Positions 2,526 through 64,000 of a DNA stretch of 64,000 bases are shown piece by piece. Each line of letters opens with the position of its first letter. Position 1 is the stretch's first letter. The position numbers and the translations under genes were made by a program. The notes beneath the pieces were generated by a model. The model had not been told where the DNA came from, searched no databases, and saw only the letters and a list, made by a program, of their open reading frames with translations. Source of the DNA: an uncultured Ignavibacteria bacterium (lineage in GTDB: Bacteria > Zixibacteria > MSB-5A5 > CAIYYT01); NCBI GenBank assembly GCA_964552775.1, contig CAZKIH010000001.1, forward strand, positions 195,287 to 259,286. The letters are read 5' to 3'.

Positions 2526-4643
2526 TTAGCACGGCGCCGCACCACCGGCAAAGATGTAGTTAACTAAGTAGACTACGTCCGAAATGTTGACTATCCCATT
2601 GCAGTTGGCGTCTCCGGAAGCCAAAGGAAACGGAGCGGGACCCTCTGCCACAATATACTGGAGTACAAATACAGCATCTGAGATATTGACCAAGCCACTG
2701 CCATTGGCGTCGCCTCTGACATAAGGTCTGGTCGCAATATCGAAGCAGACTGCCGGTGCCGAGGGGTCAATTTCGCTGTTGTTGGCGATGCCGAAATATG
2801 AAGGGGGAAATGCGCCGGCGCCGTAATCGAAAAACCAGTGGTAGGCTGGCGGAAAAAAGATGTTGTCGACGCAGAAACCGGAAGTCGTCGGCGTCGCGCC
2901 CTGTAGGCGGAATTTAACGCTGTAGCACTTGGCGTGAGAAGGATGAGATGGCAGATTGTATGCGGCGGCATTGGAAGCACCGCCAAGATAGAGGGTGTCC
3001 GGCAAATGACTAGTCTGAGGACGGATTCCAATGCCGGGGAGATTGAAGCGGTCGACTGCATCACCTTCTTCTTTGACCAAGCCAGCCCATTCACCGGTCT
3101 CTGGTGCAGTACCATAACCTGTAATCCACTGGATGGGGAATGATGTGGCCAACTCAAATCCAAGGGCAAGAACCCAAATCGGATCACCATTAGCAATCCA
3201 GACTTCAAGGATGTTGTCTTCACCAGTCCAGACCACGTTGTCGCCTCGATTCAACACGATCCTGACATCGCCTTGGCTGGAGGCGGAGTAGTCACAGACA
3301 TCGCCGATTCCGTCGAAATCGGCATCCTCTTGACCGGTGTTAGGGACGATCAAGCAATTATCAAGGAGATCACAGACTAAGTCTCCATCTCGATCTGTAT
3401 GATGCGCGCACTCTGCACAACCACCGCCCGGCAAATTAGTGCAAGCATCACAGGCATTGCCCGTTCCATCGCCATCGGTGTCACTCTGGTTTGCGTTGCT
3501 GACGATTGGACAGTTGTCGACGACACGAGTGTTCGCTGCGTATCCGGGATCACCAAAACCGTCGCCATCAGTATCTGTGCAGGGATCGCAGGCATCACCA
3601 ATACCGTCACTGTCGCTGTCGGTCTGCCCAGAGTTGGCGATGGACGGACAGTTGTCGGTCCCACATTCGTTCTCGGGATGTCCGGGATCTCCAAACCCGT
3701 CTCCATCGGAGTCGAAGCAGATCCCGCTGCAGGCAATCACACCTGCACCGATCAAAGTAGCACACGCGTTATTACTTGGGGCACACGGAGAGACGTTTTT
3801 GATCGGGTAAGTTGGATACGCTGTCGGGCAGAACCTAGGATCAAATGAGAAATTGCCTGGAGTTGATACGAGGGAAGCGAATGCGCCAACCCAGTCTCCC
3901 GATTGATTGCCGTAAATGTCCGTGCAAGTGATGTCAAATTCAGCGGGGCTGACGCCAGAATATGAGATAGAAGCTCCTGGCGCATTGAAGGCAATGATGC
4001 AGTTGCTGATGTCGACCGGTGACCCGGACGACAGCAAACCTCCCCCCTGGTTGTAAACGATCGTGCAATTTATGAGTCTGGGAGTACTGGGGAGATTTCT
4101 TTCATACTGATAGACGCCTCCTCCTGCACCGCTAAGGCTTCGGTTGTTTGCAATCACGCAGTTCCGAATCGTCGGGTTAGCATTGTCATCGCAGCTTATG
4201 CCCCCACCTTCATTCGAAGATGTATTGTTGATCAAGCGGCAGTTCTGAATGAGCGGAGAGGCTTGGTTCACGGCAATGCCTCCTCCTTCTGTCCATACAT
4301 AGCCATTCGTGATCGTAAAGCCGTCCAGCCTCGACGTCGTGTCCTCACCGGCAACGAACAGGATGCCCCGATGATTATCTCCTGAAGTCCCTTGACAGTC
4401 AATAATAGTAACGTCTGGCCCGCCCGCTGACTTGACAGTTATGGCCTTGCCGCTGAAGTCGACATCGCGATTACCGGCGCCTGTATATGTTCCCGCCGCA
4501 ACCAGCACCGTGTCGCCAGCGACAGCGGCATTGATGCCGGCCTGAATTGTCGGCTGATCCGTTGGAACGTTAATAGTTGAACCTACACTTACGCCCCACC
4601 AACACCCAATAATCATCATAGTGAGACAGATTACCCTACGCAC
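2526..4643 (-). CDS. secreted right-handed beta-helix protein with thrombospondin type-3-like Ca-binding repeats and a C-terminal dockerin-like pair
   Basis: Signal peptide, then repeated NxxSxxGGGI/GGGL parallel beta-helix motifs. Multiple DSDGDGFGDPG / DTDGDGTGNACD aspartate-rich TSP3-like repeats follow. The C-terminus is CGDANGSGLVNISDAVFVLQYIVAEGPAP...GDANCNGIVNISDVVYLVNYIFAGGAAPC. Confidence 0.8.
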   Translation of the reverse strand: MRRVICLTMMIIGCWWGVSVGSTINVPTDQPTIQAGINAAVAGDTVLVAAGTYTGAGNRDVDFSGKAITVKSAGGPDVTIIDCQGTSGDNHRGILFVAGEDTTSRLDGFTITNGYVWTEGGGIAVNQASPLIQNCRLINNTSSNEGGGISCDDNANPTIRNCVIANNRSLSGAGGGVYQYERNLPSTPRLINCTIVYNQGGGLLSSGSPVDISNCIIAFNAPGASISYSGVSPAEFDITCTDIYGNQSGDWVGAFASLVSTPGNFSFDPRFCPTAYPTYPIKNVSPCAPSNNACATLIGAGVIACSGICFDSDGDGFGDPGHPENECGTDNCPSIANSGQTDSDSDGIGDACDPCTDTDGDGFGDPGYAANTRVVDNCPIVSNANQSDTDGDGTGNACDACTNLPGGGCAECAHHTDRDGDLVCDLLDNCLIVPNTGQEDADFDGIGDVCDYSASSQGDVRIVLNRGDNVVWTGEDNILEVWIANGDPIWVLALGFELATSFPIQWITGYGTAPETGEWAGLVKEEGDAVDRFNLPGIGIRPQTSHLPDTLYLGGASNAAAYNLPSHPSHAKCYSVKFRLQGATPTTSGFCVDNIFFPPAYHWFFDYGAGAFPPSYFGIANNSEIDPSAPAVCFDIATRPYVRGDANGSGLVNISDAVFVLQYIVAEGPAPFPLASGDANCNGIVNISDVVYLVNYIFAGGAAPC

Positions 4644-4855
4644 GGCAAACTCCTTTGCGTCCTAATCCGATTGAAATTCGTTTCAGATTCTGATTACTTT
4701 GATGATACGCTGTAGACCCTTTACAATAGTAACTCTCAGACGTCGATTTGTCAAGTTCACAATAGAAGGTAGAATTGTGGTACAAATATTCCGCAAAGAT
4801 TACTATCATAGTAGTTTATGACAATCGACCGTATTAGCAGCGACCGGAACAAGCC

Positions 4856-5419
4856 TTGAGTCTACCGACTATCATTGGAATCGCCATAGGTTTGGCGATG
4901 GATGCCTTCGCTGTTGCGATCGCCGTCGGTTGCACAATACCGCACCTTACCTTTCGGCACTACTTCCGACTCTCATTTCATTTCGGCCTGTTCCAGGCTT
5001 TGATGCCTCTTCTCGGCTGGTACTTGGGCACCAAGGTCGAACACCTAATCGGTGGAGTAGATCACTGGGTGGCATTCGGACTGCTGACTATTATCGGAGC
5101 GCGCATGATCCAGGAGTCGCGTTCGGAAAAAAAGGACTTGAACATGGCCCTCAGGGACCCTACGCGCAAGTGGTCATTGATGATTCTCTCTGTCGCTACG
5201 AGTATCGACGCCTTCGCGGTCGGTCTGAGCATTGCTCTGCTTCGCGTCGAAATCCTGACGCCGATCGTGATCATCGGCATCGTGGCGCTCGCATTTACCA
5301 TCGGTGGAATGTTGTGTGGCAGTCGACTGGGTGGGTACCTGGGCAAACGCGCGGAGCTATGGGGCGGGATTCTGTTGATCGCGATCGGCTGTCGAATCCT
5401 CATCGAGCATCTTCTCTGA
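4856..5419 (+). CDS. mntP: manganese efflux pump MntP (DUF204 family)
   Basis: 187 aa, two repeated hydrophobic halves each with the conserved AMDAFAV / SIDAFAVG motifs. TGA stop. Confidence 0.85.
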   Translation: MSLPTIIGIAIGLAMDAFAVAIAVGCTIPHLTFRHYFRLSFHFGLFQALMPLLGWYLGTKVEHLIGGVDHWVAFGLLTIIGARMIQESRSEKKDLNMALRDPTRKWSLMILSVATSIDAFAVGLSIALLRVEILTPIVIIGIVALAFTIGGMLCGSRLGGYLGKRAELWGGILLIAIGCRILIEHLL

Positions 5420-5497
5420 AGATTGGCAATATTTTCCAGCCACCTGTAACACTGGCTCAGGTATCCCCGTACTCTAATTATCACGACAGGAGCAGTA

Positions 5498-8309: not shown

Positions 8310-9380
8310 ATGCAAGTTCGCATTAAGAAACTTCAGGGACTAATCAAAGGACTCAATCTCGACTGCCTGTTGGTTAATGAGCTGTCACAAATACGCTATC
8401 TCTGCGGTTACACCGGCTCGAATGGCATACTTGTGGTGTTCGCCAACGAAGCATATTTCGTGACTGATTTCCGCTACAAGGCGCAGGTCGGCAAAGAGGT
8501 CAAGGGTGCGAAAATCACGATTGCGCAACGCGAACTTTACACCGAATTGCCCACGATCAAGCGGCTCAATGCCAAGAACCTTCGAGTCGGTTTTCTTGAA
8601 GCTTACATGACGGTGAAGAATCTTCAGATGCTGAAAAAGCTCCTGCCGGGAGCATTGTTTGCGCCGACAAATTTCATGGTCGAGACGCTGGCATCGGTAA
8701 AAGACAACGACGAACTCAAGCACATCCAGAAGGCCGTTGACATTGCCGATGTTGCGTTTGCGCGTATCCTGCAAATCATCAAGCCGGGAATCCGCGAATC
8801 GGAGGTTGCCGCAGAACTGGAGTATCAAATGAAGATGCTCGGCTCGGAGGATCCGTCATTTGAGACGATCATCGCCTCCGGATTTCGCTCTGCGTTGCCG
8901 CATGGACGGGCTTCACACAAATTCATAAAGAAGGGGGAATTCGTTACTCTCGATTTTGGGGCGATTTCAGGAGGCTATCATTCTGACATCACTCGAACAG
9001 TAGTGGTTGGCAGAGCATCGGCCCAACAGAAGAAGATCTACAATCTCGTTCTCAAAGCCCAGATTGCGGGAACTCGCAAGGCCAAGGCGGGTTTAAAAGG
9101 CTCTGACGTGGATAAGCACGTTCGCGACATTATCTCGAAGGCCGGTTACGGCAAGAACTTTGGACACGGGTTGGGGCATGGCATTGGACTACTGATCCAC
9201 GAAGAACCACGCCTTAGTCCGTTATCTGACACTGTGTTACAACCAAACATGGTCGTTACCGTCGAGCCTGGGGTGTATATTGACGGATGGGGCGGCGTCC
9301 GCGTTGAAGATGATGTGGTCATTTCCAGAAACGGCTGTCGCGTAATGAATAAAGCCGATAAGTCGTTGCTGGAGCTATAG
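8310..9380 (+). CDS. Xaa-Pro aminopeptidase (M24 family, PepP-like)
   Basis: Creatinase-N-like N-terminus and a pita-bread domain with HGLGHGIGLLIHEEP and VEPGVYI. The ATG at 8310 with an AAGGA RBS is preferred over the track start at 8262. Confidence 0.85.
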   Translation: MQVRIKKLQGLIKGLNLDCLLVNELSQIRYLCGYTGSNGILVVFANEAYFVTDFRYKAQVGKEVKGAKITIAQRELYTELPTIKRLNAKNLRVGFLEAYMTVKNLQMLKKLLPGALFAPTNFMVETLASVKDNDELKHIQKAVDIADVAFARILQIIKPGIRESEVAAELEYQMKMLGSEDPSFETIIASGFRSALPHGRASHKFIKKGEFVTLDFGAISGGYHSDITRTVVVGRASAQQKKIYNLVLKAQIAGTRKAKAGLKGSDVDKHVRDIISKAGYGKNFGHGLGHGIGLLIHEEPRLSPLSDTVLQPNMVVTVEPGVYIDGWGGVRVEDDVVISRNGCRVMNKADKSLLEL

Positions 9381-9440
9381 TTTTTGGGAAAACATTCGAT
9401 AATCAGGAGTAGGGTTGATTCAACCCGGTCATAGAAACTA

Positions 9441-9962
9441 ATGAACGAAGAAACTATCCGGAAACTGGTGAAGTTGGTGGAATCGTCGGACATTGAGTCG
9501 CTAACCGTCAAGAACTGGTTTAGCAACGTCATGATCATCAAGCGCAGCCCCGAGGCCAGCAATGGCTCAAATGGCGGATCGCATGGTCATGTCACAGTTG
9601 CCAAATCACAGGTCGTTTCGACCTTGCCGACGATTGAGGTGGCTGCCCCTGCTCCTGCTCCGCAGCCGGTCCAGGTCATGCCACAACCACAGCCCGTTGC
9701 GCCGCAGCCGGCGGCTGCAAAGGGCAAGGAGATCAAGTCTCCAATGGTGGGAACATTTTACACCTCGCCCGAACCGGGTGCGCCGCCATTTGTTGAAGTT
9801 GGTGCGCGCATCACGAAGGGTCAGACGATCTGTATCATCGAAGCGATGAAGCTGATGAACGAGATCGAAGCAGAGTTTGACGGCGTTGTCGTCAGACGCG
9901 CGGTGGAAAATGCCCAACCGGTGGAATTTGGTCAGGCGCTGTTCATCGTCGAACCGACCTAA
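9441..9962 (+). CDS. accB: acetyl-CoA carboxylase biotin carboxyl carrier protein
   Basis: Pro/Ala-rich linker followed by the biotinyl domain [18 protein letters not shown] with the EAMK biotinylation motif. Confidence 0.85.
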
Positions 9963-10018
9963 TTCCTGATCTGCTAACTCATCGGTCTGGTTTCCGGACA
10001 AACCTTGAGGAGAGACCG

Positions 10019-11131
10019 ATGAACCTGCGTGACATGCTGGTGGAGATGCAGCACCTGGCAGCATCCGACCTGCACTTGCGTGTTGGCATCAAGCCTACCC
10101 TGAGAGTGCACGGCAAACTGGTCCCGATCAACGCGGATCCGATTTCGAAAGAGGCGATGACGGAAATTGTCTCGCAGATACTATCCCCCGAACAGCAGAA
10201 GCGTTTCGCCGCACGCAATGAAATGGATCTGGCGCTCTCCGTCACCAAGCTTGGTCGATTCCGTATCAATCTCTATCGCCAGCGCGGAACTCCCGGTATT
10301 GCCATCCGTGCCGTCAATACCCTGGTTCCCTCTTTTGAAGATTTGAATCTCCCTGAAGTAATCGCGGAATTGTGCGATGCCAGACGTGGATTGGTGATTG
10401 TCACCGGCACTACCGGTTCTGGCAAGTCTACGACATTGGCTGCAATCATCGAGTATCTCAATTCGAACCGCGCCGAGAATATTGTCACGATCGAAGACCC
10501 CATCGAATATATCTACAAAGATAAGAAGTCGATCATCTGCCAGCGCGAGGTCGGCGCCGATTCCGAAAATTTTGCGGCGGCGCTGCGGCATGCCTTTCGA
10601 CAGGACCCAGACGTTATCCTGATCGGTGAAATCCGTGACGCCGAAACGATGGGTATCGCTTTGGCGGCTGCAGATACTGGCCATTTGGTCCTGACTACGC
10701 TGCACACGATGAACGTCGTCGAAACGATCACGCGCGTGATCTCGTTTTTCCCGCCTCATCAGCATCAGCAAATTCGTTTGCTGATGGCCGGTACGCTCAA
10801 GGCGATTGTCTGTCAGCGTCTCCTGCCGCGCGCCGACATGCCGGGGCGAGTGCCTGCGGTGGAAGTTGCTGTCTCGACGGGCGCTATTCGCGACTGCATC
10901 ATCGACCCGATGAAAACGTCGTCGATCATCGAGTTTATCGAGGGCGGCAACGTGCAGTACGGTATGCAATCATTTGATCAATCGATCATGAAATTGTACC
11001 GCGCCGGACAGATCACTTACGAAGATGCCATGCGCAACGCCAGCAACCCGGATGACTTTGATCTGCGCATCAAGGGCATAACGGGATCGTCAGAGACGGC
11101 ATGGACGGCGTTCTCCGCAGGACAGCATTAG
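10019..11131 (+). CDS. pilT: type IV pilus retraction ATPase PilT
   Basis: 370 aa with Walker A GTTGSGKSTTLAAII, Walker B VILIGEIRD and the PilT-family AIRDCIIDP motif. Confidence 0.9.
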   Translation: MNLRDMLVEMQHLAASDLHLRVGIKPTLRVHGKLVPINADPISKEAMTEIVSQILSPEQQKRFAARNEMDLALSVTKLGRFRINLYRQRGTPGIAIRAVNTLVPSFEDLNLPEVIAELCDARRGLVIVTGTTGSGKSTTLAAIIEYLNSNRAENIVTIEDPIEYIYKDKKSIICQREVGADSENFAAALRHAFRQDPDVILIGEIRDAETMGIALAAADTGHLVLTTLHTMNVVETITRVISFFPPHQHQQIRLLMAGTLKAIVCQRLLPRADMPGRVPAVEVAVSTGAIRDCIIDPMKTSSIIEFIEGGNVQYGMQSFDQSIMKLYRAGQITYEDAMRNASNPDDFDLRIKGITGSSETAWTAFSAGQH

Positions 11132-11161
11132 CATAGCCCCCAACACCCTTTTTCTATAAGG

Positions 11162-11190
11162 AGTCCGAGCCGCAAGGCTCGGACTTTTTT
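11162..11190 (+). terminator. rho-independent terminator after pilT
   Basis: agtccgagcc-gcaa-ggctcggact 10-bp stem followed by ttttt. Confidence 0.6.
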
Positions 11191-11201
11191 GTGGGCTTAT
11201 C

Positions 11202-11888: not shown

Positions 11889-12080
11889 TGATGACGAAGA
11901 CGTCGCTGTTTCGTGCAGGAATCAAATCGTACCTGGGTGCGAACTGAGCTCGAGGCCGTGAACTTGTGATCGGATTTGTGTCAATTCAAGTTGCCAAAAC
12001 AGCGAGTATTTTGTATTCTTTAGACATAACTACATATCAATTGGGCCGAACGGTTGTCAGCCGGTCTAATGGAGTTGATC

Positions 12081-13532
12081 ATGCGAATCAGTAAGCACTT
12101 GTTGATTCCGGTGTTGCTCACCGTGGCAATGATTGGACCCAGATTAGACGCGCAAGACCCTGGAATAGCCGACACACTGAGACTTGGAACCGATAGCTGC
12201 AGCGTCAAGTCCACGAATCCGTCGGCCACAGTGCCGGTGTTCTTGTTCAATGACGAAGGCGTTTCCTCTGTTACTCTCCCGCTTCTGATCAATGGCTTTT
12301 CCGGCTGGGCGACTCTCGATTCAATTTCCTACAGCGGTAGCCGCCTGGAGGACCCAGCAATACTTGACACTCGACAATTTCAACTTGTCGTAAACGACAC
12401 GATTGCGGTGGCAAAGTGGTTAATTACGTTCACAACCGGAGGCGGAACGAATCTGCCTGCAGGCGGCGGTAAACTGTGCGAACTATGGTTTCGACCGCGA
12501 TTCGGTGGGACTGTCGTTTTGGATACGTGCGATATTGCAGTATTGATCTTGGCTGATGAGACAGCAAATGTGTTCGCTCCGCAGTTCGAGTCAGGAGAAA
12601 TTGAGATTGCCTGCGATTACTTAGCTGGTGATACCGATTACGGCTCCGGGATAAACTCCCTAGACGTCCTCCGCATCCACAAATGCCTTCTTGGGCACTT
12701 TTGGGGAGCTGCTGGGTGGTTGCAGTCATTCGACCTGAATTGCGACCGTCGGATGGATTTGAGAGATGTCAATGACCTGGTTGAGTACGTATTCTATGCC
12801 GGACCTCCACCCTGCGCATGTGGCGGCTATTCTCCAGGTATCTACAATGACCCTGGATTGCGCGATACACTGTCCTTCAATTCCGACACTCTCTATGTCG
12901 GGATATCGAAATACGTCGATTTTAATCTTTTCAATGATGAGATAATTCAGGGTTTCAGCTTTGCGTGGGAATGGGACGGTACTGCCAGCGTAACTCCTCC
13001 AACGAGAAAAAGCGAGTATTCGGCTCTACCGAGAATCAATCCCGAATATAGATATACCCTTACCAACTATATGGGCCTCGCGCCACCTGGCACAGATCCC
13101 GGTGGATTCACGTTGAGCAGTTGGACTTTTGAGATAGACACACTCATTACTCCCGGTTCAGGCCCGATTTTCACCCTGCTCTTCACTCCTCTTGCTCCGG
13201 GCACGCTCACGTTCAGGTTGGTACATTATGAACCACCCGGTAACTCGGAGTCAATGCTTACCGGGATGGAGAATACTGCTATCGTGCCGGTCTTTGTTAG
13301 CGGAACGATCACAGTCTTGCCTTACTTGTGTGGTGACGCCGACAAGAACGGACTGGTGAATATCAGCGACGTTGTCTTCTTGATTAACTACATCTTCTCC
13401 GGTGGCGCCGCGCCGAATCCGATAGCAGCTGGCGACGCCAATTGCAGTGGCATCATCAATATCTCTGACGCAGTTTACTTAATCAACTATGTCTTTGGCG
13501 GCGGTCCCGCGCCGTGCGCGGCATGTCCTTGA
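12081..13532 (+). CDS. secreted protein with internal and C-terminal dockerin-like Ca-binding pairs
   Basis: Signal peptide at MRISKHLLIPVLLTVAMIGP (ATG at 12081 preferred over 12054). An internal segment reads GDTDYGSGINSLDVLRIHKCLLG...LNCDRRMDLRDVNDLVEYVFYAG. The C-terminus is CGDADKNGLVNISDVVFLINYIFSGGAAP...GDANCSGIINISDAVYLINYVFGGGPAPCAACP. Confidence 0.7.
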   Translation: MRISKHLLIPVLLTVAMIGPRLDAQDPGIADTLRLGTDSCSVKSTNPSATVPVFLFNDEGVSSVTLPLLINGFSGWATLDSISYSGSRLEDPAILDTRQFQLVVNDTIAVAKWLITFTTGGGTNLPAGGGKLCELWFRPRFGGTVVLDTCDIAVLILADETANVFAPQFESGEIEIACDYLAGDTDYGSGINSLDVLRIHKCLLGHFWGAAGWLQSFDLNCDRRMDLRDVNDLVEYVFYAGPPPCACGGYSPGIYNDPGLRDTLSFNSDTLYVGISKYVDFNLFNDEIIQGFSFAWEWDGTASVTPPTRKSEYSALPRINPEYRYTLTNYMGLAPPGTDPGGFTLSSWTFEIDTLITPGSGPIFTLLFTPLAPGTLTFRLVHYEPPGNSESMLTGMENTAIVPVFVSGTITVLPYLCGDADKNGLVNISDVVFLINYIFSGGAAPNPIAAGDANCSGIINISDAVYLINYVFGGGPAPCAACP

Positions 13533-18699: not shown

Positions 18700-20235
18700 T
18701 TAGTCGCAACGAGGGATCGCGCCGCCGAACATGAGGTACCGCACAATAAGGACCGCATCAGAAATCGTGATCACCCCACTGCTGTTGGAATCACCGTTGC
18801 TAAGTGTTAGCGGAGGTTGTCCGTCTGCAAATATGTACTCAATTAGGAAGATTGGATCGCCCAGCTCGATACTGCCGTTGCCGTCCGCATCGCCGCAGAC
18901 AATTTCTACCGTAGGTACGGAGAACGAATATGCGACAATCTCCAAGTTATTCTGATCTCGACCGCTCCATGACACGGTTATCGTTGAATCTCCGTCGTCA
19001 GCAACGAACATGAGCCCGAACTGCCCTCTTCCCGGAAAGGCACCGTGACTGTATGGGCCGCCCTTCAGACTTCCCGTTTGGTCCAATGCCGCGGCATGAA
19101 ACACTGGGAACGCAGCTCCTCCAGCGGTGGCATAGTCGCTATTGGTGCCGTCGTCGATCGCGATCATATGCGCGTCCCCGGAGAGCATGCAGAGTCCGCG
19201 GATATGGTTCTGCTCAATGAAATCCGCTAATTCACGACGCTCATTCGTGTAAAGATACCAGCCATCATCCCCAGTCGATCCGATCCAAGGCAGCGTATTT
19301 ATCCAGACAATTAGCGGAAAACGGCCATTTGCTCGAAGGAGTTGCTGCCGAAACCAGGCTTTCTGAGATTGTCCAAGCATGGTTTTGGCGGGCGTGTCGG
19401 CGGCGCCGGCAGGACTTCTGGCGGAACGAGAGTCGCAGACGATGAAGCGTACGCGACCAATTGTGAAAGCATAGTTGATCGACACGTTCCCGGACCCGGC
19501 TGCAAGCGGATAGTGAGGGAAGACTTCCTGATAAGTCACTCGAGCCGCCAATCTGCTCAGTGAGGTCGAATCAGAGTTATTGGGTCCGTAATCATGGTCA
19601 TCCCAGATATAAGCCGTGGTGACCTCGTGATAAAGAGCGGCCTGAACTGGAGAAGCCAGTATCGATTCGTATGCCTGTCGATACAAGTTCATGTCGTTGC
19701 TGGCGATATTTTGGTAATGCATGTCGCCCAAATGGAAGAATAGATCGGGGTGCAGTTCTCTGATTGTCTCAAAGACGGTATTGGTCGAACCGGTTTGAGC
19801 ACACGATCCAAATGCCAATGTGAATGACGAAGCACCCGACGGAAAGGTCTTGGCCATCCCGACCGAATTTGTGTCACCTAAACCGTTAATTTCAAATCCG
19901 TAGTAATATTGAGTTGCTGATAACAAGCCGGTGACCAGCAAAGTGACAATGCCGTTGTTTTGGTCGGTGATAGATGTAGCTGGCTCGGAGTATGTTGGGT
20001 ATGTGAGATCCGGAGACGTGCTGACGATCAGTCGCACGACAGAGCCATCAGAAAAGGCCTTGGCTTTCACCTGAAATGAAGAATCCGTTGTTGCTCCTGA
20101 CCAAAACCATTTGACCTGCACGGCATGACACCTACCTCCCATAAGTGCAAGCCCAATTACGACAACCCAAACGGCGTTTCGTACCGGAATTGAAGGCTGA
20201 AACAAATCCATGGAGAAAGCGGATATCATCGACAC
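18700..20235 (-). CDS. PhoD-like metallophosphatase with C-terminal dockerin-like pair
   Basis: Signal peptide; FAFGSCAQTG...LFFHLGDMHYQN and IWDDHDYGPNNSD motifs of PhoD-like phosphatases. The C-terminus is CGDADGNGSIELGDPIFLIEYIFADGQPP...NGDSNSSGVITISDAVLIVRYLMFGGAIPRCD. Confidence 0.8.
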   Translation of the reverse strand: MSMISAFSMDLFQPSIPVRNAVWVVVIGLALMGGRCHAVQVKWFWSGATTDSSFQVKAKAFSDGSVVRLIVSTSPDLTYPTYSEPATSITDQNNGIVTLLVTGLLSATQYYYGFEINGLGDTNSVGMAKTFPSGASSFTLAFGSCAQTGSTNTVFETIRELHPDLFFHLGDMHYQNIASNDMNLYRQAYESILASPVQAALYHEVTTAYIWDDHDYGPNNSDSTSLSRLAARVTYQEVFPHYPLAAGSGNVSINYAFTIGRVRFIVCDSRSARSPAGAADTPAKTMLGQSQKAWFRQQLLRANGRFPLIVWINTLPWIGSTGDDGWYLYTNERRELADFIEQNHIRGLCMLSGDAHMIAIDDGTNSDYATAGGAAFPVFHAAALDQTGSLKGGPYSHGAFPGRGQFGLMFVADDGDSTITVSWSGRDQNNLEIVAYSFSVPTVEIVCGDADGNGSIELGDPIFLIEYIFADGQPPLTLSNGDSNSSGVITISDAVLIVRYLMFGGAIPRCD

Positions 20236-24391: not shown

Positions 24392-24394
24392 ACG

Positions 24395-37036: not shown

Positions 37037-39679
37037 TTACTTGCAGGCGGCACAGGGCGCTGGCCCACCCGAAAATATGTAGTTGATCAAATAGACGACG
37101 TCGGAAATTGAAGTGCCTCCGCTGCAGTTGGCGTCGCCATGAAGCAAGGTCTCAGGTGCTGGCCCACCGGAGAAGATGTATGTAACCAGAAACACGGCGT
37201 CTGAGATTGAGATGGCGTTGCTGCCGTTCGCATCACCACACTGAATGACTCGAATTGAGAAAGCTTTGTCATTTGTCGACGGAGCTTGATCCTGAACGCG
37301 AGCGGTAAACGTGATTTGCCCGGCCGATATCGGTGTTCCGGAAACGAGTCCGGCGCTGGACATTGTCAGGCCAGTGCCAGACAAATCATCACCCAGGTCA
37401 AACCAGGTCTTGGTGCCCGTACCGCCTTCGCAGGTCAGTTGTTCAGAATAGATCTTGCTGACCTGGCCATTCGGCAACGAACTCGTTGTGATAACCAACG
37501 GCGTCGACTGCGGCGGGAAAACAATGAAGTCAATCCACGCCTTGTCGCTTCCGCCAATTTGCGATCCGTCTTTCTCGTACTTCCACATAAAAGTCCGTGA
37601 ACCAGGCGATACCGCATAGCTGGCTTGCGCCCAGCCAGCACTCCCGGACCAAGAACCCTTCTCCACGCCATCGATGTAGAATCTGAGCCAATCCCAATTC
37701 GTTTCTGACGAAACTTTGTAATAGAACGAGATATTTCCAGCTGTAGTCACTTGTTGAGTAAGCGAAAGGGTGGAGGACTGACTGTTACCGATGGTTCCTG
37801 AGGCGGCGGAGTATCCGCCTTCGTACTGACCGCTGTTCACTACAATCCAGGGAGCATTGCCACCCACTATCCAATTGTAGGCAGTAAAGTTTCCGGTCTC
37901 AAAATCTTCGACCGACTGTCCGATCGTCAGCGAGAAGAAGGCCGAATCGACATAGCCACCATTCGCTGTGATGTTCACACGGAAATTGACCACGTGATTC
38001 TGCGGGCATGAAGGCGAAACCGAGAACGAGTAATTGGAAATCGATTGGGCTGTTCCACCCAATTCGGGAATAAGCGGGTAGGCTGAAGTATTCTGGGTGA
38101 TTGTAACATAGGAGTCGGCAGTCGCAAGGACACCCTGCGTGTTGACCGCGTCACCACCACCTTCGTTCTTCAGGGTAATGCGCATTGAGACATTATCACC
38201 AGCACTGATGGCAGCCGGTGCGGTATCGTCTACATACGTGAGAACCGGGATCTGTGGAACTGGCTGAAGTTGAACGTCAACAGTGACCACGCCGTTATTG
38301 GTGACCACAATGTTGCTGACCGTTTGGGAAACGTACCCGGGAGCGCTAAACCGAAGCGACCAGGTTCCGGCAGCGATCATGCGATGATAGTTACCGTTTG
38401 TCGGATCACAACGCACTTCCGTAGAGTCCTGATCGTGTCCGATTATCGAGACAATTGCACCAAGTGGACCGGAGGTCTGCGCATCAGTGACGATTCCCTT
38501 GATGCCATACATCGCCTGTTCGAGGAAGTGCAAAAGTGACAGTCGATTATACGTCCAGTGCGCCGGCAACAACGAGGCACTCAGCAGTTTCGTGTCAGAA
38601 ATCTCAATGGTAACCTCGCGGCAACCGTACCAGTAGTTCATATAATCCTGGCGTCCACCGTCGACCTCGTACCATGCATAACCATTGGTAATACCGTCAT
38701 TGAACTCGTTGAAGTACGTACTTGGAGAATTCGCCTGAGCGGTATCGCAGTACTGATGCCCGATGTATTGCCACCAACTATCGTCAGGGTGAAGTTGCGC
38801 CTTGGTGTCCCAGGGATAGTTGAATACTTCGGTTCCACCGTGGAAGTTGGCAGAAATAACAAGATTGCGAGTCTGGGACCATGCCATAAATGCACTAGTC
38901 TCCATCTGGTAGGCCTCGCCATCGGGATGAGGACCATCCATGAAGTCGGGATAGTTGCGGTTCAGGTCCACTCCGTTGGCATTGTAGCGCGTGGCCCCTG
39001 ACACGGACGCGTTACCACCATGATAAGTGCCGTCCGGGTTGGCCAAGGGGTTGATGAATATTTCCATGTTGTTGACCATCGTCTGTATGCGAACGTTCCC
39101 TGCGGTGTATCCTACCAACAAGGAGTCAATCAGGCGCAGCATCAACACATACCCGGTGGTCTCGTCGCCGTGCATCGAAGATGTATAGAACACCTCCGGC
39201 TCGGCCTCTTCCGTGGCGACATTGTCGGAGATCTTTACTGCCAGCAACAGTCTTCCCTGCCCTGTCGTACCGATCGCAACGAGTTGGCAGAGTGACGGAT
39301 AGTTGGTGACAAAGGCGTTCATCATCTGTTCATATGCCGTGTAAGTCGGATATGCATCCCACGCCATCGCATCCTTTGCGTTGTCTGTCATTGCGACATA
39401 ACCAACATCACCGGGATTGGGAAGTAACTCGTACTTGTAGCCCAATGTGCGGAAGTGTTCGAACTGGCGGTCATTGGCATAGGCATAGACCAACTTACCG
39501 TCAAATTTCGAACATTCGTCTATGGATATAAGCTTGGTGAGGGTTGACAGCTCTTTGCGATCCTGAATTTCAAAACGAAAGTAATACTGATTGACGTCCG
39601 CAGCCATTAAGCTGGAGACAAACAGCAACACGTAGAGCGTGCTGAGTCTTAACGCTTTAACCATGGATTCTCCCATCAT
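37037..39679 (-). CDS. secreted M14 zinc carboxypeptidase with C-terminal dockerin-like pair
   Basis: Signal peptide, then the M14 Zn-binding motifs FYTSSMHGDETTG and ANFHGG. Downstream are a propeptide-like N-domain and beta-sandwich/Ig-like domains. The C-terminus is CGDANGSNAISISDAVFLVTYIFSGGPAP...GDANCSGGTSISDVVYLINYIFSGGPAPCAACK. Confidence 0.85.
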   Translation of the reverse strand: MMGESMVKALRLSTLYVLLFVSSLMAADVNQYYFRFEIQDRKELSTLTKLISIDECSKFDGKLVYAYANDRQFEHFRTLGYKYELLPNPGDVGYVAMTDNAKDAMAWDAYPTYTAYEQMMNAFVTNYPSLCQLVAIGTTGQGRLLLAVKISDNVATEEAEPEVFYTSSMHGDETTGYVLMLRLIDSLLVGYTAGNVRIQTMVNNMEIFINPLANPDGTYHGGNASVSGATRYNANGVDLNRNYPDFMDGPHPDGEAYQMETSAFMAWSQTRNLVISANFHGGTEVFNYPWDTKAQLHPDDSWWQYIGHQYCDTAQANSPSTYFNEFNDGITNGYAWYEVDGGRQDYMNYWYGCREVTIEISDTKLLSASLLPAHWTYNRLSLLHFLEQAMYGIKGIVTDAQTSGPLGAIVSIIGHDQDSTEVRCDPTNGNYHRMIAAGTWSLRFSAPGYVSQTVSNIVVTNNGVVTVDVQLQPVPQIPVLTYVDDTAPAAISAGDNVSMRITLKNEGGGDAVNTQGVLATADSYVTITQNTSAYPLIPELGGTAQSISNYSFSVSPSCPQNHVVNFRVNITANGGYVDSAFFSLTIGQSVEDFETGNFTAYNWIVGGNAPWIVVNSGQYEGGYSAASGTIGNSQSSTLSLTQQVTTAGNISFYYKVSSETNWDWLRFYIDGVEKGSWSGSAGWAQASYAVSPGSRTFMWKYEKDGSQIGGSDKAWIDFIVFPPQSTPLVITTSSLPNGQVSKIYSEQLTCEGGTGTKTWFDLGDDLSGTGLTMSSAGLVSGTPISAGQITFTARVQDQAPSTNDKAFSIRVIQCGDANGSNAISISDAVFLVTYIFSGGPAPETLLHGDANCSGGTSISDVVYLINYIFSGGPAPCAACK

Positions 39680-53422: not shown

Positions 53423-53425
53423 GCT

Positions 53426-58147: not shown

Positions 58148-58707
58148 AATAACGAATCTAGGGCAATATTCAACCTCAATACGTTCACCCGCGGTTGCCC
58201 AATAAACCCGAGACTGAACGGCTCGACATTACTTTCGACCAATCGGCGTAACGGAACCAGTTGATCTTCACTTAGCCCACGCGCTTTAGCGACTCGTTCT
58301 ATCTGGTAGAAGGCTGCTTCCGGCGAAATGTGCGGATCAAGCCCGCTACCCGAAGCAAGCAGCAGCTCATCGGGTGGCTGTTTGCCGCCATTCGCCCCAG
58401 CCAATGACGCCTGTCGCGTCGTGATCTGCTCCAGCAATGCCTTGCTTGTCGGGCCGAGATTTGTGCCGCTCGATGGTTGCGCATTATAGCCGATCCCGGA
58501 GGGGCGCGGCCAAAAATAACTTGAATCGGTGAATTCCTGGGCGATGAGTTCTGATCCAATCAATCTTCCATTGGAATGGATAAGGCTACCGTTAGCCTGA
58601 TGCGGAAATAGCACCTGGGCAGCACCAAGCATTATCAATGGATAGATCACTCCGGTCACAATTGTCATTGCGCCGATGAGCTTTGCTGCTATCAAAAAAG
58701 TCTTCAT
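58144..58707 (-). CDS. kdpC: potassium-transporting ATPase subunit C
   Basis: 187 aa with an N-terminal TM and the KdpC family motif GVIYPLIMLGAAQVLFPHQANGSL. Confidence 0.9.
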   Translation of the reverse strand: MKTFLIAAKLIGAMTIVTGVIYPLIMLGAAQVLFPHQANGSLIHSNGRLIGSELIAQEFTDSSYFWPRPSGIGYNAQPSSGTNLGPTSKALLEQITTRQASLAGANGGKQPPDELLLASGSGLDPHISPEAAFYQIERVAKARGLSEDQLVPLRRLVESNVEPFSLGFIGQPRVNVLRLNIALDSLF

Positions 58708-58730
58708 TGAAGTTCCAGTCTCCCGACGAG

Positions 58731-60830
58731 TTACGAGATTAATCCCAATTGGGTGACAATAATGTCGATTATCTTAATTCCGACAAAAGGCACAATCAAA
58801 CCACCCAAGCCGTAAATCAACAGATTCCGACGCAAAATGGCTTCCGCGCCCAAAGGCCGATACTTGATCCCTCTCAAGGCCAACGGAATTAGAGCAACAA
58901 TTATGAGGGCATTGAATATCACTGCACTGAGAATCGCGCTCTGCGGAGACACGAGTTGCATGACATTGAGCTTTGCCAATGGACCTACCGAGCCTGACGT
59001 GGCATAAAGCACGCTGAACATCGCTGGCACGATGGCAAAGTACTTTGCTACATCATTGGCCACACTGAATGTCGTCAACGCGCCCCGTGTCATGAGAAGC
59101 TGCTTGCCGGTTTCCACCACCTCAATCAGTTTGGTCGGATTGGAGTCGAGATCAACCATGTTCCCAGCTTCGCGTGCGGCTTGCGTTCCCGTATTCATCG
59201 CCACGCCAACATCAGCCTGTGCCAAAGCGGGAGCATCGTTGGTGCCATCGCCGGTCATGGCAACCAAGTGCCCATTGGCCTGTTCCTCGCGAATGCGATT
59301 AAGTTTGGCCTCGGGATTGGCTTGAGCCATAAAGTCGTCTACTCCGGCCTCGGCCGCTATTGAGGCGGCTGTCAGCGGATTGTCTCCGGTTACCATAATC
59401 GTCCGAATGCCCATCGAACGCAGTTGCGAGAATCTCTCTTTGATTCCGCCCTTAACGACGTCCTTGAGATGCACTACGCCAAGAACAAAGTGTTCCTCGG
59501 AAACCACCAACGGCGTGCCGCCAGACTTTGAAATGCGGTTCACAATGGGATCGACATCCGCCGGCCAGGTGCCGCCGCTGTTCTCAATATGTTTCCTGAT
59601 TGCATCGCCGGAACCCTTGCGCAGAGTGCGTACCGGTTCGCCGCTCTCCAGGACATCGACGCCGCTCATCCGCGTTTGTGCGCTGAAGGGAACAAATCGA
59701 GCCAGGTGTGGCGGCAGTGTCTCGGCGCGCAATCCAAATCTATCTTTCGCCAACACCACAATTGATCTGCCCTCCGGAGTCTCATCACTCAACGAAGCCA
59801 ACTGCGCGGTCTCCGCAAGCGTCTGCGCCGGTACTCCCGGTACCGGTATGAACTCGGTCGCCATCCGATTGCCGAACGTGATCGTTCCTGTCTTATCCAG
59901 TAACAAGACATCAACGTCTCCTGCGGCTTCCACCGCGCGGCCGCTCGTGGCAATAACATTCTTTCGGATCATGCGATCCATACCGCTGATACCAATCGCG
60001 CTCAATAATCCGCCGATTGTTGTGGGAATGAGACACACTAACAGCGAGATGAGAATCGGCAGAGTTACGACTGCGGACAGGTCCTGCGCCGCTTCGTTGC
60101 CGCTGTAGTCAGCAAAAAGTTTGAGAGTGGCAACGGCAAGCAGAAATATGATCGTCAGGGCCAAGAGCACGAGACTCAGTGCGATTTCGTTCGGCGTCTT
60201 CTGGCGCTTGGCTCCTTCGACAAGGTTGATCATTCGGTCAAGAAACGAGTGCCCCTGTTCTGCCGTGATCGCGATGACAATACGGTCGCTGATCACTCGA
60301 GTTCCTCCCGTAACCGCGCTGCGGTCTCCGCCGCTTTCACGTATTACCGGCGCCGACTCTCCCGTAATCGCCGACTCGTCAACGGAGGCAATGCCTTCGG
60401 TGACTTCACCGTCACCGGGAATAATATCGTTAGCCTCACAGACAACAAAGTCTCCGGGTCGCAAATCCGCCGCGTTGACTTTGACTTCCTGGTTCTTGGG
60501 AAGTAACTTCCGGGCTATTGTCGAAGTCCGCATGCGTTTCAGGCTCTCTGCCTGCGCCTTGCCCCGGCCTTCAGCAACTGCTTCGGCGAAGTTGGCGAAC
60601 AACACTGTAAAGAACAGCCACAGGCAAATCTGCAGGTCGAATCCCGAAAAGTCGCCGCGAATGATATTCGTAAAAAAGGCTATCGCTGTGAGTATTGTCC
60701 CGATCAAGACCACGAACATCACGGGGTTTTTGATTTGCGCTTTGGGATTCAGTTTGCGAAAAGCATCGAAAGACGCTTGTCGCAGCAACGCTCCATCAAA
60801 TAGCGTAGTTGATTTCTTGGTATTCGTCAA
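58731..60830 (-). CDS. kdpB: potassium-transporting ATPase subunit B (P-type ATPase)
   Basis: 699 aa with DKTGTIT phosphorylation motif, TGDN and [10 protein letters not shown]. Confidence 0.95.
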
Positions 60831-60842
60831 TTTCCACCCTGC

Positions 60843-62531
60843 CTAAAAAGTAGTGCCTGTCAGCATCAGTAGATGTTCAAGTATTGGTCCGAGCGCCAGA
60901 ACTGGGAAAAATGTCAATGCGCCGACGATCAGAATTGTCGCGGTCAAAATCAGACCGAATGTCATGCCCTCGGTCGAAAAACTCCCCGCCGTCATTGGCG
61001 TCGACTTCTTGCGAACCAGGCTTCCCGAAATCAACAGCACAGGCAAAATTACGCCGAATCGCGCCAGCAACATACAGAGTCCGAGTGCGATATTATAGAA
61101 GGGAGTATTGGCATTCAGCCCTGCGAACGCGCTTCCGTTATTGCCGCTTGCGGAGGTAGTCGCATACAGTATTTCACTCAGTCCGTGAGGGCCGTGATTG
61201 GCCAGACTGCTCAGTCCAGCCGTCGTTGAACAGGCAATTGCGGACGTGATCAATATGAGCGCACACGGCAGAATGATCGCAATCGTTGTCCAGCGCATCT
61301 CCAGTGCTTCAATCTTCTTGCCAAAGTACTCGGGTGTTCTTCCGACCATTAGTCCGGAAAGGAATACTGTCAGCAGCACGAACAAGATCATTCCATACAT
61401 ACCGGCACCAACGCCGCCAAAAATGATCTCACCAAGCATGATGTTGAACATTGCTATACCACCGGCTATCGGAGACATACTCGAGTGCATTGCATTCACC
61501 GAGCCGTTGGACGCAACAGTTGTGAAGTTGGACCAGATGATGCTATTCACAACTCCAAATCGCGTCTCTTTTCCCTCGAGGTTAGAAACTCCGAGCGCGC
61601 TGTTGTTCGAAAATTCGGCGTAGGCTGAGATACCGATAAACGCGATCAGCATAATCATCATAACACCGTAGAGCACCCAGGCGTGTTTGCGCGAGCCGAC
61701 CATCAATCCGAATGTGTATACGAGCGCGGCAGGCAACATCAAGATTGCCAGCACCTCGAACCAGTTCGAAAGTGGTGTCGGGTTTTCATACGGGTGCGCG
61801 CTGTTGGTATTGAAGAACCCTCCGCCATTGGTGCCAAGCTGTTTGATCGCTATCTGCGAAGCCGCCGGGCCCATCGGCAGTATCTGCTCTTTCCCTTCTA
61901 GTGTCGTCGCAGATTGGTAGGCATCGACATTCTGCACTACGCCTTGGCCGACCAGTACCAGCGTCCAGACAATGGAGAGTGGCAATAGGATATGTATGGT
62001 CGATCGCGTCATATCCGTCCAGAAATTACCCAAAGTCCCGGAGGTCTTTCTCGAAATACCGCGCGCCAGCGCCGCCATTACCGCTATACCCGTCGCAGCA
62101 CTGACAAAATTCTGTACAGTGAGTCCAACCATCTGCGTCAAATAACTTAGGGTTACCTCACCTGCATAGGATTGCCAGTTGGTATTTGTCATGAAGCTGA
62201 CAGCCGTATTTAACGCCAGATGCCACGACGGCGCCGGCAGGTTCTGTGGATTGAGCGGCAACAACTGCTGCAGAATTTGGAGAAGAAACACTACGGCAAA
62301 CCCGCCCAGATTGAAGAGCAACAACGCCGAGGCGTATTGCTTCCAATCCATCTCGGCATCAGCATCGATACCGCACATTCTATAGATCAACCGCTCGACA
62401 CTCTTAAACGGGCGGAGGATGTTTGAGCCCTGACCAGTCAGCATGTTGTAACAGAACCGCCCCAAAACGGGCGTCAGAACGATCAAGGCAACAATCAATG
62501 CGGCAATTTGCAGAAAGTCGTTAGCAATCAT
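60843..62531 (-). CDS. kdpA: potassium-transporting ATPase subunit A
   Basis: 562 aa, KdpA channel-like subunit with multiple TM helices and selectivity-filter-like GG motifs. Confidence 0.95.
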   Translation of the reverse strand: MIANDFLQIAALIVALIVLTPVLGRFCYNMLTGQGSNILRPFKSVERLIYRMCGIDADAEMDWKQYASALLLFNLGGFAVVFLLQILQQLLPLNPQNLPAPSWHLALNTAVSFMTNTNWQSYAGEVTLSYLTQMVGLTVQNFVSAATGIAVMAALARGISRKTSGTLGNFWTDMTRSTIHILLPLSIVWTLVLVGQGVVQNVDAYQSATTLEGKEQILPMGPAASQIAIKQLGTNGGGFFNTNSAHPYENPTPLSNWFEVLAILMLPAALVYTFGLMVGSRKHAWVLYGVMMIMLIAFIGISAYAEFSNNSALGVSNLEGKETRFGVVNSIIWSNFTTVASNGSVNAMHSSMSPIAGGIAMFNIMLGEIIFGGVGAGMYGMILFVLLTVFLSGLMVGRTPEYFGKKIEALEMRWTTIAIILPCALILITSAIACSTTAGLSSLANHGPHGLSEILYATTSASGNNGSAFAGLNANTPFYNIALGLCMLLARFGVILPVLLISGSLVRKKSTPMTAGSFSTEGMTFGLILTATILIVGALTFFPVLALGPILEHLLMLTGTTF

Positions 62532-62535
62532 GTTT

Positions 62536-62619
62536 CTACATCTCCTCGGCCTTGAACAGGCAATACACCAGGTAGACCAGCAGTAACAGCGCTACGATAC
62601 CACCTAACCAGAATTCCAT
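62536..62619 (-). CDS. kdpF: potassium-transporting ATPase subunit F (27-aa hydrophobic peptide)
   Basis: Reverse-strand ATG at 62619 gives MEFWLGGIVALLLLVYLVYCLFKAEEM with a stop at 62536, 4 nt upstream of kdpA. Too small for the ORF track. Confidence 0.5.
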   Translation of the reverse strand: MEFWLGGIVALLLLVYLVYCLFKAEEM

Positions 62620-63279
62620 ATGCTTACTCAAATCGTTTAGAAATACACCAGATAGCTTTCGAGACCTTCCCGAAAACACTCTGCTAATAACGACACTGAG
62701 CTGTAGTCGGATAGTAAAGAGGTGGGACGGAGTAGTAAAGAAATGGTAAAGAAGCTGACCACTGCGAGGTGATCAAAGTGATTACATGGCCAGCACTTCA
62801 GGCGACTTCACCCGGCACTTTCCAGACAATTCTTGACTACCAACCGACCTTGTGATTCCCCAATCAGTCTATCGAGCGAATGATCCGCAAAATCGGGTTC
62901 GAGGCGCGGATTACCGACTCTTGAAGCCAGCTCGACGAACCATCGTGACTCAAGCAGTCCCAGGCTCGGAATTGACTTACGGGGGGAGCGGGTTTTTGAT
63001 CTAAATTCTTGACAACTTGCACCATGTTCACTAAACTTAATTGAAGTAAGTTCAGGGCGGGCTTCGAAAAGTTCTGTTCATCACCTCAGTCGTAAGCTTG
63101 CGTGCTGATCGCCAGCAATTGAGATACTCCTGTTACACACAAGCAGCTACTGACGCCTGAGCCGGCGGCAATTTCAAAATCCAGAAAGACGTCCTGTCTG
63201 ACTGCCTCAACTCCAATCGTTGCGCGTGCAGACTCGAATCAATAGAGGTGGCAGAGAGGGATCGTAAGAGAGGTGCAAA

Positions 63280-64000
63280 ATGCCATTGCGTATTCAGGGG
63301 TTCTTCCTAATCCTGTTCGCCACCATACTCGCACTTATCGCTGCATCGATGATCTTGATTGAACCTGCAGTAGCGAACCCAGACATGAGCCAAAGCCAGG
63401 TAGAGATGCCCACTTTGTGCGGCGATGTCGATGGCAGTGGAAATATCAATATCGCTGATTTAACGCGTCTTTGGGTTTTTCTCTTTCAAAATGGCCCGCC
63501 CCCGCCATTCCCCGAGGACGCCGATGTTGATGGTTGTGGAAGCATAAACGCCTCCGATCTCGTTCATTTATGGAATTATTTGTTCGAGGCAGGTCCTGTT
63601 CCCTGTGCCGGCAATTGCAACATTGATCACGGTATTAATTGGGTACGAACGGTGTGTGGTCAGACGTTCACAACTGGCGTTGATTCAGTAGGTCTAGATG
63701 TCTTTGTAGCAAACGACACCCCCTTGCGGGCAATGTCTCTCGGATTTGGTTACAACGCGGATGACATCTACGAAATCACCAGTGTTAGTAAAGCAGTTGC
63801 TCTCAGTGACGGTCTGTTTTCGGTGACGTTCAAGCCCTCAATCAATCAGGTCCTCATCGGCTGGATGAATAGTTCGACTGGAGGTTCATTTCCAATTCAT
63901 TCAGTTGCAGTGCGAATTGCCACCATCTGGGTGAAGAGAAGCGGTCCCGAACAGAATGGTTGTGTGAACATTCGCCGGTCATTTGTTGGTCCGGCCGGTC
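63280..64000 (+). CDS. secreted protein with N-terminal dockerin-like pair (partial; runs off the window end)
   Basis: ATG at 63280 and signal/TM MPLRIQGFFLILFATILALIAASMIL, then CGDVDGSGNINIADLTRLWVFLFQNGPPP...DADVDGCGSINASDLVHLWNYLFEAGPVPCAGNCN. No stop before 64000. Confidence 0.55.
   Translation, partial: MPLRIQGFFLILFATILALIAASMILIEPAVANPDMSQSQVEMPTLCGDVDGSGNINIADLTRLWVFLFQNGPPPPFPEDADVDGCGSINASDLVHLWNYLFEAGPVPCAGNCNIDHGINWVRTVCGQTFTTGVDSVGLDVFVANDTPLRAMSLGFGYNADDIYEITSVSKAVALSDGLFSVTFKPSINQVLIGWMNSSTGGSFPIHSVAVRIATIWVKRSGPEQNGCVNIRRSFVGPAG

Follow-up and report, generated by a model that had tools for sequence, protein, structure and literature searches.

Cohesin and dockerin proteins outside cellulosomes were reportedly described by Peer and colleagues in 2009 for non-cellulolytic organisms, and in Archaeoglobus fulgidus a cohesin and a dockerin lie within one polypeptide. 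Besides the clostridial cellulosome, the closest described system is that of Candidatus Stygibacter (Cloacimonadota), in which peptidases and glycosidases are tagged with dockerins and a cohesin scaffoldin carries a C-terminal domain (CTD; Williams et al. 2021, PMC8542988). Non-cellulosomal dockerins have also been proposed to act as adhesins, for example on a giant open reading frame (ORF) of Omnitrophota (PMC10066038). Here, we analysed a stretch of 64,000 nucleotides (contig CAZKIH010000001.1, positions 195,287 to 259,286, deposited as an uncultured Ignavibacteria bacterium; hereafter the window), in which a calcium-binding module recurs on secreted proteins. We consider it probable that these proteins belong to a non-cellulosomal type I cohesin-dockerin assembly system in a Zixibacteria genome and that the module is not a new sorting signal. 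The host was placed using an aspartyl-tRNA synthetase gene (AspRS, 430-2256), whose close homologues, as far as they bear a taxon name, are all from Zixibacteria. This phylum is common in sediments and soils and has, to our knowledge, no cultured members. In the literature searched, no paper joining Zixibacteria with dockerins or cohesins was found.

The module is about 65-70 amino acids (aa) long and consists of a doubled D-x-N-x-(S/D/N)-G-x-(I/V)-x-(I/V)-S-D loop, each followed by a helix. An original prediction, made from the sequence alone, had described it as a dockerin-like pair on at least seven proteins. Strict and relaxed regular-expression scans caught only the strongest copies, and hidden Markov models (HMMs) were used instead, one built from the copies in the window and one from 167 related dockerins. 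Six-frame scans with both HMMs returned the same five ORFs with six modules (domain E-values of 1e-18 to 1e-38), fewer than the seven carriers claimed; neither HMM detected a sixth carrier in the window, the next best match having an E-value of 0.3. The genes of the five carriers, named A to E, and their modules are:

2526-4643, minus strand: gene of protein A, 705 aa, right-handed beta-helix and TSP3 repeats
2529..2726, minus strand: predicted C-terminal type I dockerin of A, ending GGAAPC; Pfam Dockerin_1 34.5 bits, local HMM E = 1e-31
12081-13532, plus strand: gene of protein B, 492 aa, with an internal and a C-terminal dockerin copy
12615..12815, plus strand: internal, divergent dockerin of B; local dockerin HMM E = 1.2e-18
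13320..13529, plus strand: predicted C-terminal type I dockerin of B, ending PCAACP; Dockerin_1 49.3 bits
18700-20235, minus strand: gene of protein C, PhoD-like phosphatase; Pfam PhoD E = 1.4e-22
18703..18903, minus strand: C-terminal dockerin of C, ending PRCD; Dockerin_1 21.4 bits, local HMM E = 5e-20
37037-39679, minus strand: gene of protein D, M14 carboxypeptidase; Peptidase_M14 E = 2e-55, further CarboxypepD_reg, CARDB and He_PIG domains
37040..37249, minus strand: C-terminal dockerin of D, ending PCAACK; Dockerin_1 20.3 bits, local HMM E = 2e-31
from 63280 past the window end, plus strand: gene of protein E; the full-length protein is P0045, 842 aa
63406..63618, plus strand: N-terminal dockerin of E; Dockerin_1 30.7 bits

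Thus, the recurrence of the double calcium loop in the genes named by the original prediction was borne out, and so were the annotations as beta-helix/TSP3 protein, PhoD phosphatase and M14 peptidase, which Pfam confirmed. The extra copy claimed for the interior of protein B is also present, though divergent: AlphaFold2 (AF2) predicts helices at aa 193-203, 214-217 and 227-239, and the Asp residues of its calcium loops are invariant in 40 family members. Each of the five carriers opens with a hydrophobic, signal-like stretch, as judged by inspection and hydropathy; together with the Pfam domains, this agrees with their earlier description as secreted, non-cellulolytic proteins. The PCAACx ending is found as claimed in B and D, but not in A (APC) and C (PRCD). 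Similarly, the N-terminal copy in E, which had been called atypical, does exist, but full-length E has a second dockerin at its C-terminus, ending PCAACP (63.8 bits on Dockerin_1 for P0045), and the N-terminal copy is therefore an addition and not a replacement. The region of P0045 between its cohesin-like module (see below) and this C-terminal dockerin (aa ~270-770; 2405-3910 of locus L079) gave no credible Pfam family match.

The description of the module as dockerin-like is supported by Pfam. Dockerin_1 (PF00404, gathering cut-off 22.9 bits) is matched over essentially its full length in all five carriers, with A, B and E scoring above the cut-off and C and D, which align to positions 2-56 of 57, just below. 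When protein B was searched against PDB sequences, mostly dockerins were found; the top matches were all dockerins, the best being 3ul4_B of Clostridium thermocellum (E = 1e-5). In the column consensus of the 167 modules, positions D1, D/N3, D/N/S5 and D12 are kept in both calcium loops, each loop is followed by a helix, and the two halves are near-symmetric (...V-N-I-S-D-A-V-Y-L-I-N-Y-I-F...). The AF2 model of B places helices of the C-terminal copy at aa 428-440, 448-451 and 461-473, where dockerin helices are expected. Judged by profile score and by the tandem loop-helix arrangement in alignment and model, the recurring module is a canonical type I dockerin. Among related proteins, it ends no more than 12 residues from the C-terminus in 113 of 121 cases, and a P-C-x-x-C end is very common. 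A second tail variant (P0039, P0038, P0016-P0024 and others) ends P-C-D-x-D/N-G-D-G-x-P-D-C instead, with an extra motif resembling a mini calcium loop between two cysteines.

The original prediction had further stated that the window lacks a cohesin-like scaffold. Profile comparison and structure prediction point to the opposite: taken together, they reveal four cohesin-like modules, all of them inside proteins already listed as dockerin carriers. These modules lie below Pfam Cohesin (PF00963, cut-off 24.1 bits) and were therefore overlooked earlier; NCBIfam names none of the four as a cohesin either. Their positions are:

12156..12614, plus strand: predicted first cohesin of protein B (B1), AF2 beta-sandwich at aa 32-177
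12834..13322, plus strand: predicted second cohesin of protein B (B2), AF2 beta-sandwich at aa 263-413
63613..64000, plus strand, truncated at the window border: cohesin-like module of protein E (E-type), aa 112-262
2733..3278, minus strand: cohesin-like module of protein A (A-type), aa ~455-637, 183 residues directly before the dockerin

The most direct evidence comes from protein B, for which about 37 homologues of full length are available, with 38-60% identity. An AF2 model based on the homologue alignment (predicted local distance difference test, pLDDT, 85; predicted template-modelling score, pTM, 0.73) contains two beta-sandwiches with a helical dockerin after each. When the model was compared with PDB structures using Foldseek, nearly all of the top 50 matches were cohesins. 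Among them are the cohesin-X-module-dockerin chains 4fl4_C (E = 1e-10) and 3kcp_A (E ~1e-10) of CipA and the cohesin dyad 3l8q of ScaA, and the matches to cohesin dyads and to the CipA chains cover both sandwiches of B. Against single cohesins, the target-normalised template-modelling (TM) score ranges from 0.66 to 0.76, the latter for 5nrm_A, and one of the best matches is 2xdh, a non-cellulosomal cohesin of A. fulgidus. By AF2 and Foldseek, B1 and B2 both have the nine-stranded beta-sandwich of the cohesin fold, and B, with two of them, has the multiple cohesins of a cellulosomal scaffold. Because of this model and its cohesin matches, B is predicted to be a cohesin-dockerin-cohesin-dockerin (Coh-Doc-Coh-Doc) protein.

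For protein E, a link to recognised cohesins is available through a relative. The first 256 residues of E, comprising the dockerin and the E-type module, share 37-40% identity with each of the two Doc-Coh units in P0039, and this protein scores 34.1 bits with Pfam Cohesin, in two stretches. In addition, all 12 matches of an E-type profile in PDB are cohesin chains (best 4ums_A, E = 3.5e-4). The A-type module, whose family comprises 259 representatives at 50% clustering in a library of 1.84 billion proteins, is linked to cohesins by profile-profile comparison and a weak fold match. Using an alignment of 132 A-type sequences, hhalign gave the A-type module a probability of 97.3% with the E-type module (E = 1.7e-11), 96.5% with B2 and 90.8% with B1; for B1, the values were 97.5% with the E-type module and 98% with B2. 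At the level of sequence profiles, the A-type, E-type, B1 and B2 modules are thus shown to be mutually homologous. The TSP3 region of protein A in front of its module (aa ~300-455) is rich in Cys and Asp and is hit, far below the cut-offs, by the NCBIfam models for the MYXO-CTERM cell-cohesion protein MtsC and for Omp28-related selenoproteins. In relatives, TSP3 repeats very often precede the dockerin and may serve as a calcium-stiffened linker.

A further property of the dockerin is its cysteines. In 165 non-redundant dockerins aligned with hmmalign, four columns are often occupied by Cys: column 5 (position -1, preceding the conserved Gly), column 43 (position 4 of loop 2) and columns 67 and 70 (the P-C-x-x-C end). 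The complete set occurs in 77 of the 165, a tally of co-occurrence that says nothing of which Cys pair. Pairwise co-occurrence is significant with Fisher p-values from 1e-2 to 1e-17, all of them <=4e-9 except for the pair of columns 5 and 43. In the window, A has only the loop-2 Cys and one terminal Cys, and C only the -1 Cys and one terminal Cys. Dockerins gain stability from an intramolecular clasp that joins residue -1 (or -2, -3) to a C-terminal residue; disruption of this clasp reduces both dockerin stability and cohesin binding (Slutzki et al., PMC3821032). Since Cys at -1 and at the C-terminus occupies the described clasp positions, the four-Cys dockerin is probably a covalent, disulfide form of this clasp.

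The system is not restricted to the window. One genome per GTDB species was scanned with the B alignment, and more than 514 dockerin matches were confirmed, all in Zixibacteria, in metagenome-assembled genomes (MAGs) labelled 'uncultured Ignavibacteria' or in MAGs of the Fibrobacteres-Chlorobi-Bacteroidetes (FCB) group, with up to 12 loci per genome. The AspRS P0295 is 75% identical to that of the window, and at least one 'Ignavibacteria'-labelled MAG is a close relative by AspRS. We collected 78 related loci, which together with the window amount to 1.33 Mb; as they were picked by dockerin matches, the counts of 139 ORFs with a dockerin only and about 20 with cohesin-like modules are biased. 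Orthologues of protein D in L041 and L023 are 60-62% identical and retain the dockerin. Among 145 A-type representatives, the module is followed by a dockerin in 70, stands alone in 51 and is combined with the CTD of the type IX secretion system (T9SS) in 9; about 90 also bear the dockerin, and several combine two or three cohesin modules. Up to three tandem A-type modules or mixtures of A- and E-type are found in relatives (P0131, P0199). P0122-P0125 (234 aa each) are free-standing A-type modules with a signal peptide only, without dockerin or anchor.

Locus L059 (MAG CAVPQS01), whose AspRS is 92% identical and which is syntenic with the window at the AspRS locus, also has cohesin-dockerin genes adjoining. 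Beside its AspRS (9152-13332), two small genes combine an A-type cohesin with a dockerin, apparently split across frames, and the 705-aa beta-helix/TSP3/cohesin/dockerin protein A of the window is absent from this place. Consequently, the N-terminal 'cargo' part of gene A appears to vary among close relatives. Ten sampled cargoes of relatives comprise a PAD_porph deiminase, M43, S8, C10 and M1 peptidases, a hydrolase of beta-lactamase fold, and BNR, FG-GAP/ASPIC, C-type lectin and Cleaved_Adhesin proteins. Neither a cellulase nor CBM3 occurs among the window carriers or in this sample, which does not represent whole genomes, and the plant-cell-wall glycoside hydrolases and CBM3 scaffoldin typical of a cellulosome were thus not found there.

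Candidates for an anchor were detected in the relatives. L051 (6685-14640) and L063 (10599-18557) share a three-gene cluster in which every protein ends in a T9SS sorting domain:

L051/L063 cluster protein 1: ~890 aa, N-terminal A-type cohesin and T9SS CTD
L051/L063 cluster protein 2: ~900 aa, E-type cohesin, Pfam-recognised cohesin, weak dockerin and T9SS CTD
L051/L063 cluster protein 3: dockerin and T9SS CTD

The sorting domains score 31-35 bits with PF18962 (Por_Secre_tail, cut-off 27) and 33-39 bits with TIGR04183 (cut-off 23), and the ORF at 9560-12262 of L051 reaches 34.3 bits with Pfam Cohesin, above its cut-off of 24.1. Furthermore, a protein with an E-type cohesin and a CTD occurs in L007, from a named Zixibacteria MAG, and a T9SS-CTD ORF is present in L068, from the same MAG as L059. 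By their domain content, the CTD-bearing cohesin proteins of L051 and L063 are plausible candidates for the surface anchors of the system.

Taken together, we propose the following assembly, cellulosome-like but not cellulose-degrading. Secreted enzymes and adhesin-like proteins, exported by Sec, would bear a C-terminal calcium-binding dockerin of two helices, which would plug into the beta-sandwich of cohesin modules. The predicted cohesins are very divergent and sit mostly on proteins that bear dockerins themselves (B as Coh-Doc-Coh-Doc, A as ...Coh-Doc, E as Doc-Coh...Doc), and such proteins with both module types may work as adaptors, extending the assembly in chains or branches. Cohesin proteins with a T9SS CTD, as seen in the relatives, would be exported, fixed to the outer membrane and tether the network to the cell surface. 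The four Cys, including those of the terminal P-C-x-x-C, most probably form disulfides that lock the N- and C-termini of the dockerin together as a covalent clasp. We infer the binding of dockerin to cohesin, its pairing specificity and calcium dependence, the disulfides, the extracellular location and the way in which dockerin-only cargo would cross the outer membrane.

Several observations, besides the bias in the counts of related loci, weigh against this proposal. Proteins A, B and E have no Pfam Cohesin match even at E <= 10. The AF2 model of the A-type module is poor and of low confidence (pLDDT 61), with cohesins as best Foldseek matches at E = 3e-4 to 1e-2 only, and the A-type alignment gave no match against PDB sequences. 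Since about half of the family members have this module directly in front of a dockerin, it could be an X-module-like support instead. Within the window, a cohesin protein with a T9SS CTD was not found. Dockerin-only cargo has a Sec-type signal and no recognisable tag for export across the outer membrane, and its extracellular location is assumed for this reason.

In one alternative, which we regard as unlikely, cargo folds in the periplasm, binds CTD-bearing cohesins there and passes through the type IX translocon while folded and in complex with them; the dockerin would then be an indirect export tag. It accounts for the T9SS CTDs being on cohesin proteins and not on the many dockerin cargoes, and for a cargo set that resembles classical T9SS cargo; the four conserved Cys imply folding in an oxidising periplasm, and the T9SS does move folded proteins. 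However, the idea is purely inferential, export by type II secretion or a different route is also possible, the window showed no cohesin protein with a CTD, and we know of no precedent for hitch-hiking through the T9SS. In a wider form, to which we give an equally small chance, the dockerin of Zixibacteria has taken over the role of the T9SS CTD in Bacteroidota and replaces it on the same kinds of surface enzymes (peptidyl-arginine deiminase, M14/C10/S8 peptidases, adhesin domains), with disulfide-clasped dockerin cargo docking on a few CTD-cohesin proteins, possibly in the periplasm, and being co-exported. If true, this would be a two-tier, hitch-hiking type IX secretion with three cohesin subfamilies outside current domain libraries.

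It is similarly doubtful that the dockerins work without cohesins, as calcium-stabilised modules for stability or for adhesion to polysaccharide, envelope or other cells, with the sandwiches as Ig-like or X-module-like spacers. Such an adhesin role has been proposed for non-cellulosomal dockerins (PMC10066038), the cohesin-like modules nearly always adjoin a dockerin as in X-Doc pairs, and those of the window fail Pfam Cohesin. Nevertheless, the sandwiches of B match cohesins specifically and not generic Ig folds, the E-type profile matches cohesins only, and modules without an adjacent dockerin, either free-standing (51 of 145) or CTD-anchored, fit a receptor role. For some dockerin copies, cohesin-independent adhesion is possible.

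The least likely alternative is that of the original prediction, in which the module serves as a C-terminal signal for export or surface sorting that is specific to the lineage and is read by a secretion or attachment machine independently of cohesins. Its terminal position with the frequent P-C-x-x-C end and the lack of any other recognisable outer-membrane export tag on dockerin-only cargo would fit such a signal, as would the kinds of enzymes carrying it (peptidyl-arginine deiminase, C10, M14, Cleaved_Adhesin), which match the cargo bearing T9SS CTDs in Porphyromonas; but both profile and predicted structure identify the module as a genuine dockerin, a terminal signal would fail from the N-terminal or internal positions found in E, B and P0039, cohesin modules co-occur in the same proteins and genomes, and clostridial dockerins are mostly C-terminal too, so that position alone is not diagnostic. 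Moreover, a canonical T9SS sorting domain (TIGR04183/PF18962) exists separately in the lineage and is found in relatives on cohesin-bearing proteins, which speaks against a novel signal. No window carrier matches either T9SS model, their C-terminal module being predicted as helical, and for a PEP-CTERM or sortase-like anchor there is no NCBIfam or Pfam match on the carriers, whose ends lack a hydrophobic helix. Of the earlier claim, surface retention still appears likely, but the export signal does not, and the two observations named beforehand as counting against it, a match to type I dockerins and the existence of cohesin-bearing proteins, were both made. Chance or a low-complexity repeat as origin of the module is ruled out by the E-values of the HMM scans.

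The proposed assembly system suggests that Zixibacteria may organise extracellular enzymes for scavenging protein and phosphate on the cell surface via a cohesin-dockerin network. It also exposes a blind spot in annotation, as cohesins invisible to Pfam and NCBIfam cause surveys to report 'dockerins without cohesins' in such lineages; profiles of the A-, E- and B-type modules could be used to re-annotate these genomes. In addition, builders of synthetic protein scaffolds may take an interest in the Cys-clasped dockerin and in the compact Coh-Doc fusion units.

The features of note at this locus are the cryptic cohesin subfamilies, the Coh-Doc fusions, the four-Cys dockerin and, in relatives, the T9SS-anchored cohesin proteins; the remainder of the window is ordinary chromosome, and Pfam found no cohesin, SLH, sortase or T9SS component on its other large ORFs. 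The further content is:

22206-26694: two glycine dehydrogenase subunit genes ~1.7 kb apart; between them a thioredoxin-like/TPR gene (24572-25231) and ~1 kb without a large ORF (23561-24572)
33081-36014: hemerythrin-domain protein directly upstream of a quinol-type nitric oxide reductase (NorB, fused cytochrome c-like domain)
44296-44369, plus strand: tRNA-Gln(CTG), the sole RNA gene of the window
44455-54289, minus strand: cytochrome cluster, which looks like an extracellular electron-transfer conduit; a 1425-aa protein with 58 CxxCH motifs (47466-51743) and a 553-aa protein with 20 (51761-53422), flanked by a 548-aa signal-peptide protein without Pfam match (45819-47465), a membrane protein with weak DUF4405 (53426-54289) and a 4Fe-4S/FAD oxidoreductase (44455-45807)
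54756-62531, minus strand: complete kdpABC operon and kdpD/kdpE two-component system

Compared with the clostridial cellulosome (C. thermocellum CipA/OlpB, A. cellulolyticus ScaA/ScaB), the system is alike in its type I dockerin with a duplicated loop, mostly C-terminal and on varied secreted enzymes, and in having cohesin beta-sandwich partners, adaptors with both cohesin and dockerin, and separate anchoring proteins. In contrast, the host is a diderm member of Zixibacteria and not a Gram-positive Firmicute, and peptidases (M14, S8, M1, M43, C10), a PhoD phosphatase, a deiminase and adhesin-like repeats are seen instead of cellulases and CBM3. The likely anchor is a T9SS CTD, not SLH or sortase; the cohesins are too divergent for Pfam Cohesin, and the dockerin has four conserved Cys. 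With the non-cellulosomal cohesin and dockerin proteins it shares modules on peptidases and other non-glycosidases and, as in A. fulgidus, the presence of cohesin and dockerin in one polypeptide; the A. fulgidus structure 2xdh matches protein B. However, those cases mostly involve one or a few copies per genome, whereas here at least 10-12 proteins per genome, and hundreds across the phylum, are found.

The resemblance to Candidatus Stygibacter (PMC8542988) is closer. Both are diderms of the FCB group; in Stygibacter, too, enzymes with signal peptides, including S8 and C25 peptidases, carry C-terminal dockerins, and a cohesin protein has a T9SS-type C-terminal domain for surface attachment. 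Its cohesins are on one giant scaffoldin of 3,755 aa with tandem cohesins and carbohydrate-binding modules (CBMs), found by standard domain searches, while those described here are cryptic, spread over many smaller proteins and usually beside a dockerin, and no CBM-bearing scaffoldin was seen. Finally, the dockerin resembles the T9SS CTD (Por_Secre_tail, TIGR04183) as a C-terminal tag on similar surface enzymes with retention at the outer surface. Yet the CTD is a beta-sandwich and the dockerin a calcium-binding pair of helices, and the window carriers have no match to the CTD profiles; in the lineage, both tags coexist, at times in one protein.

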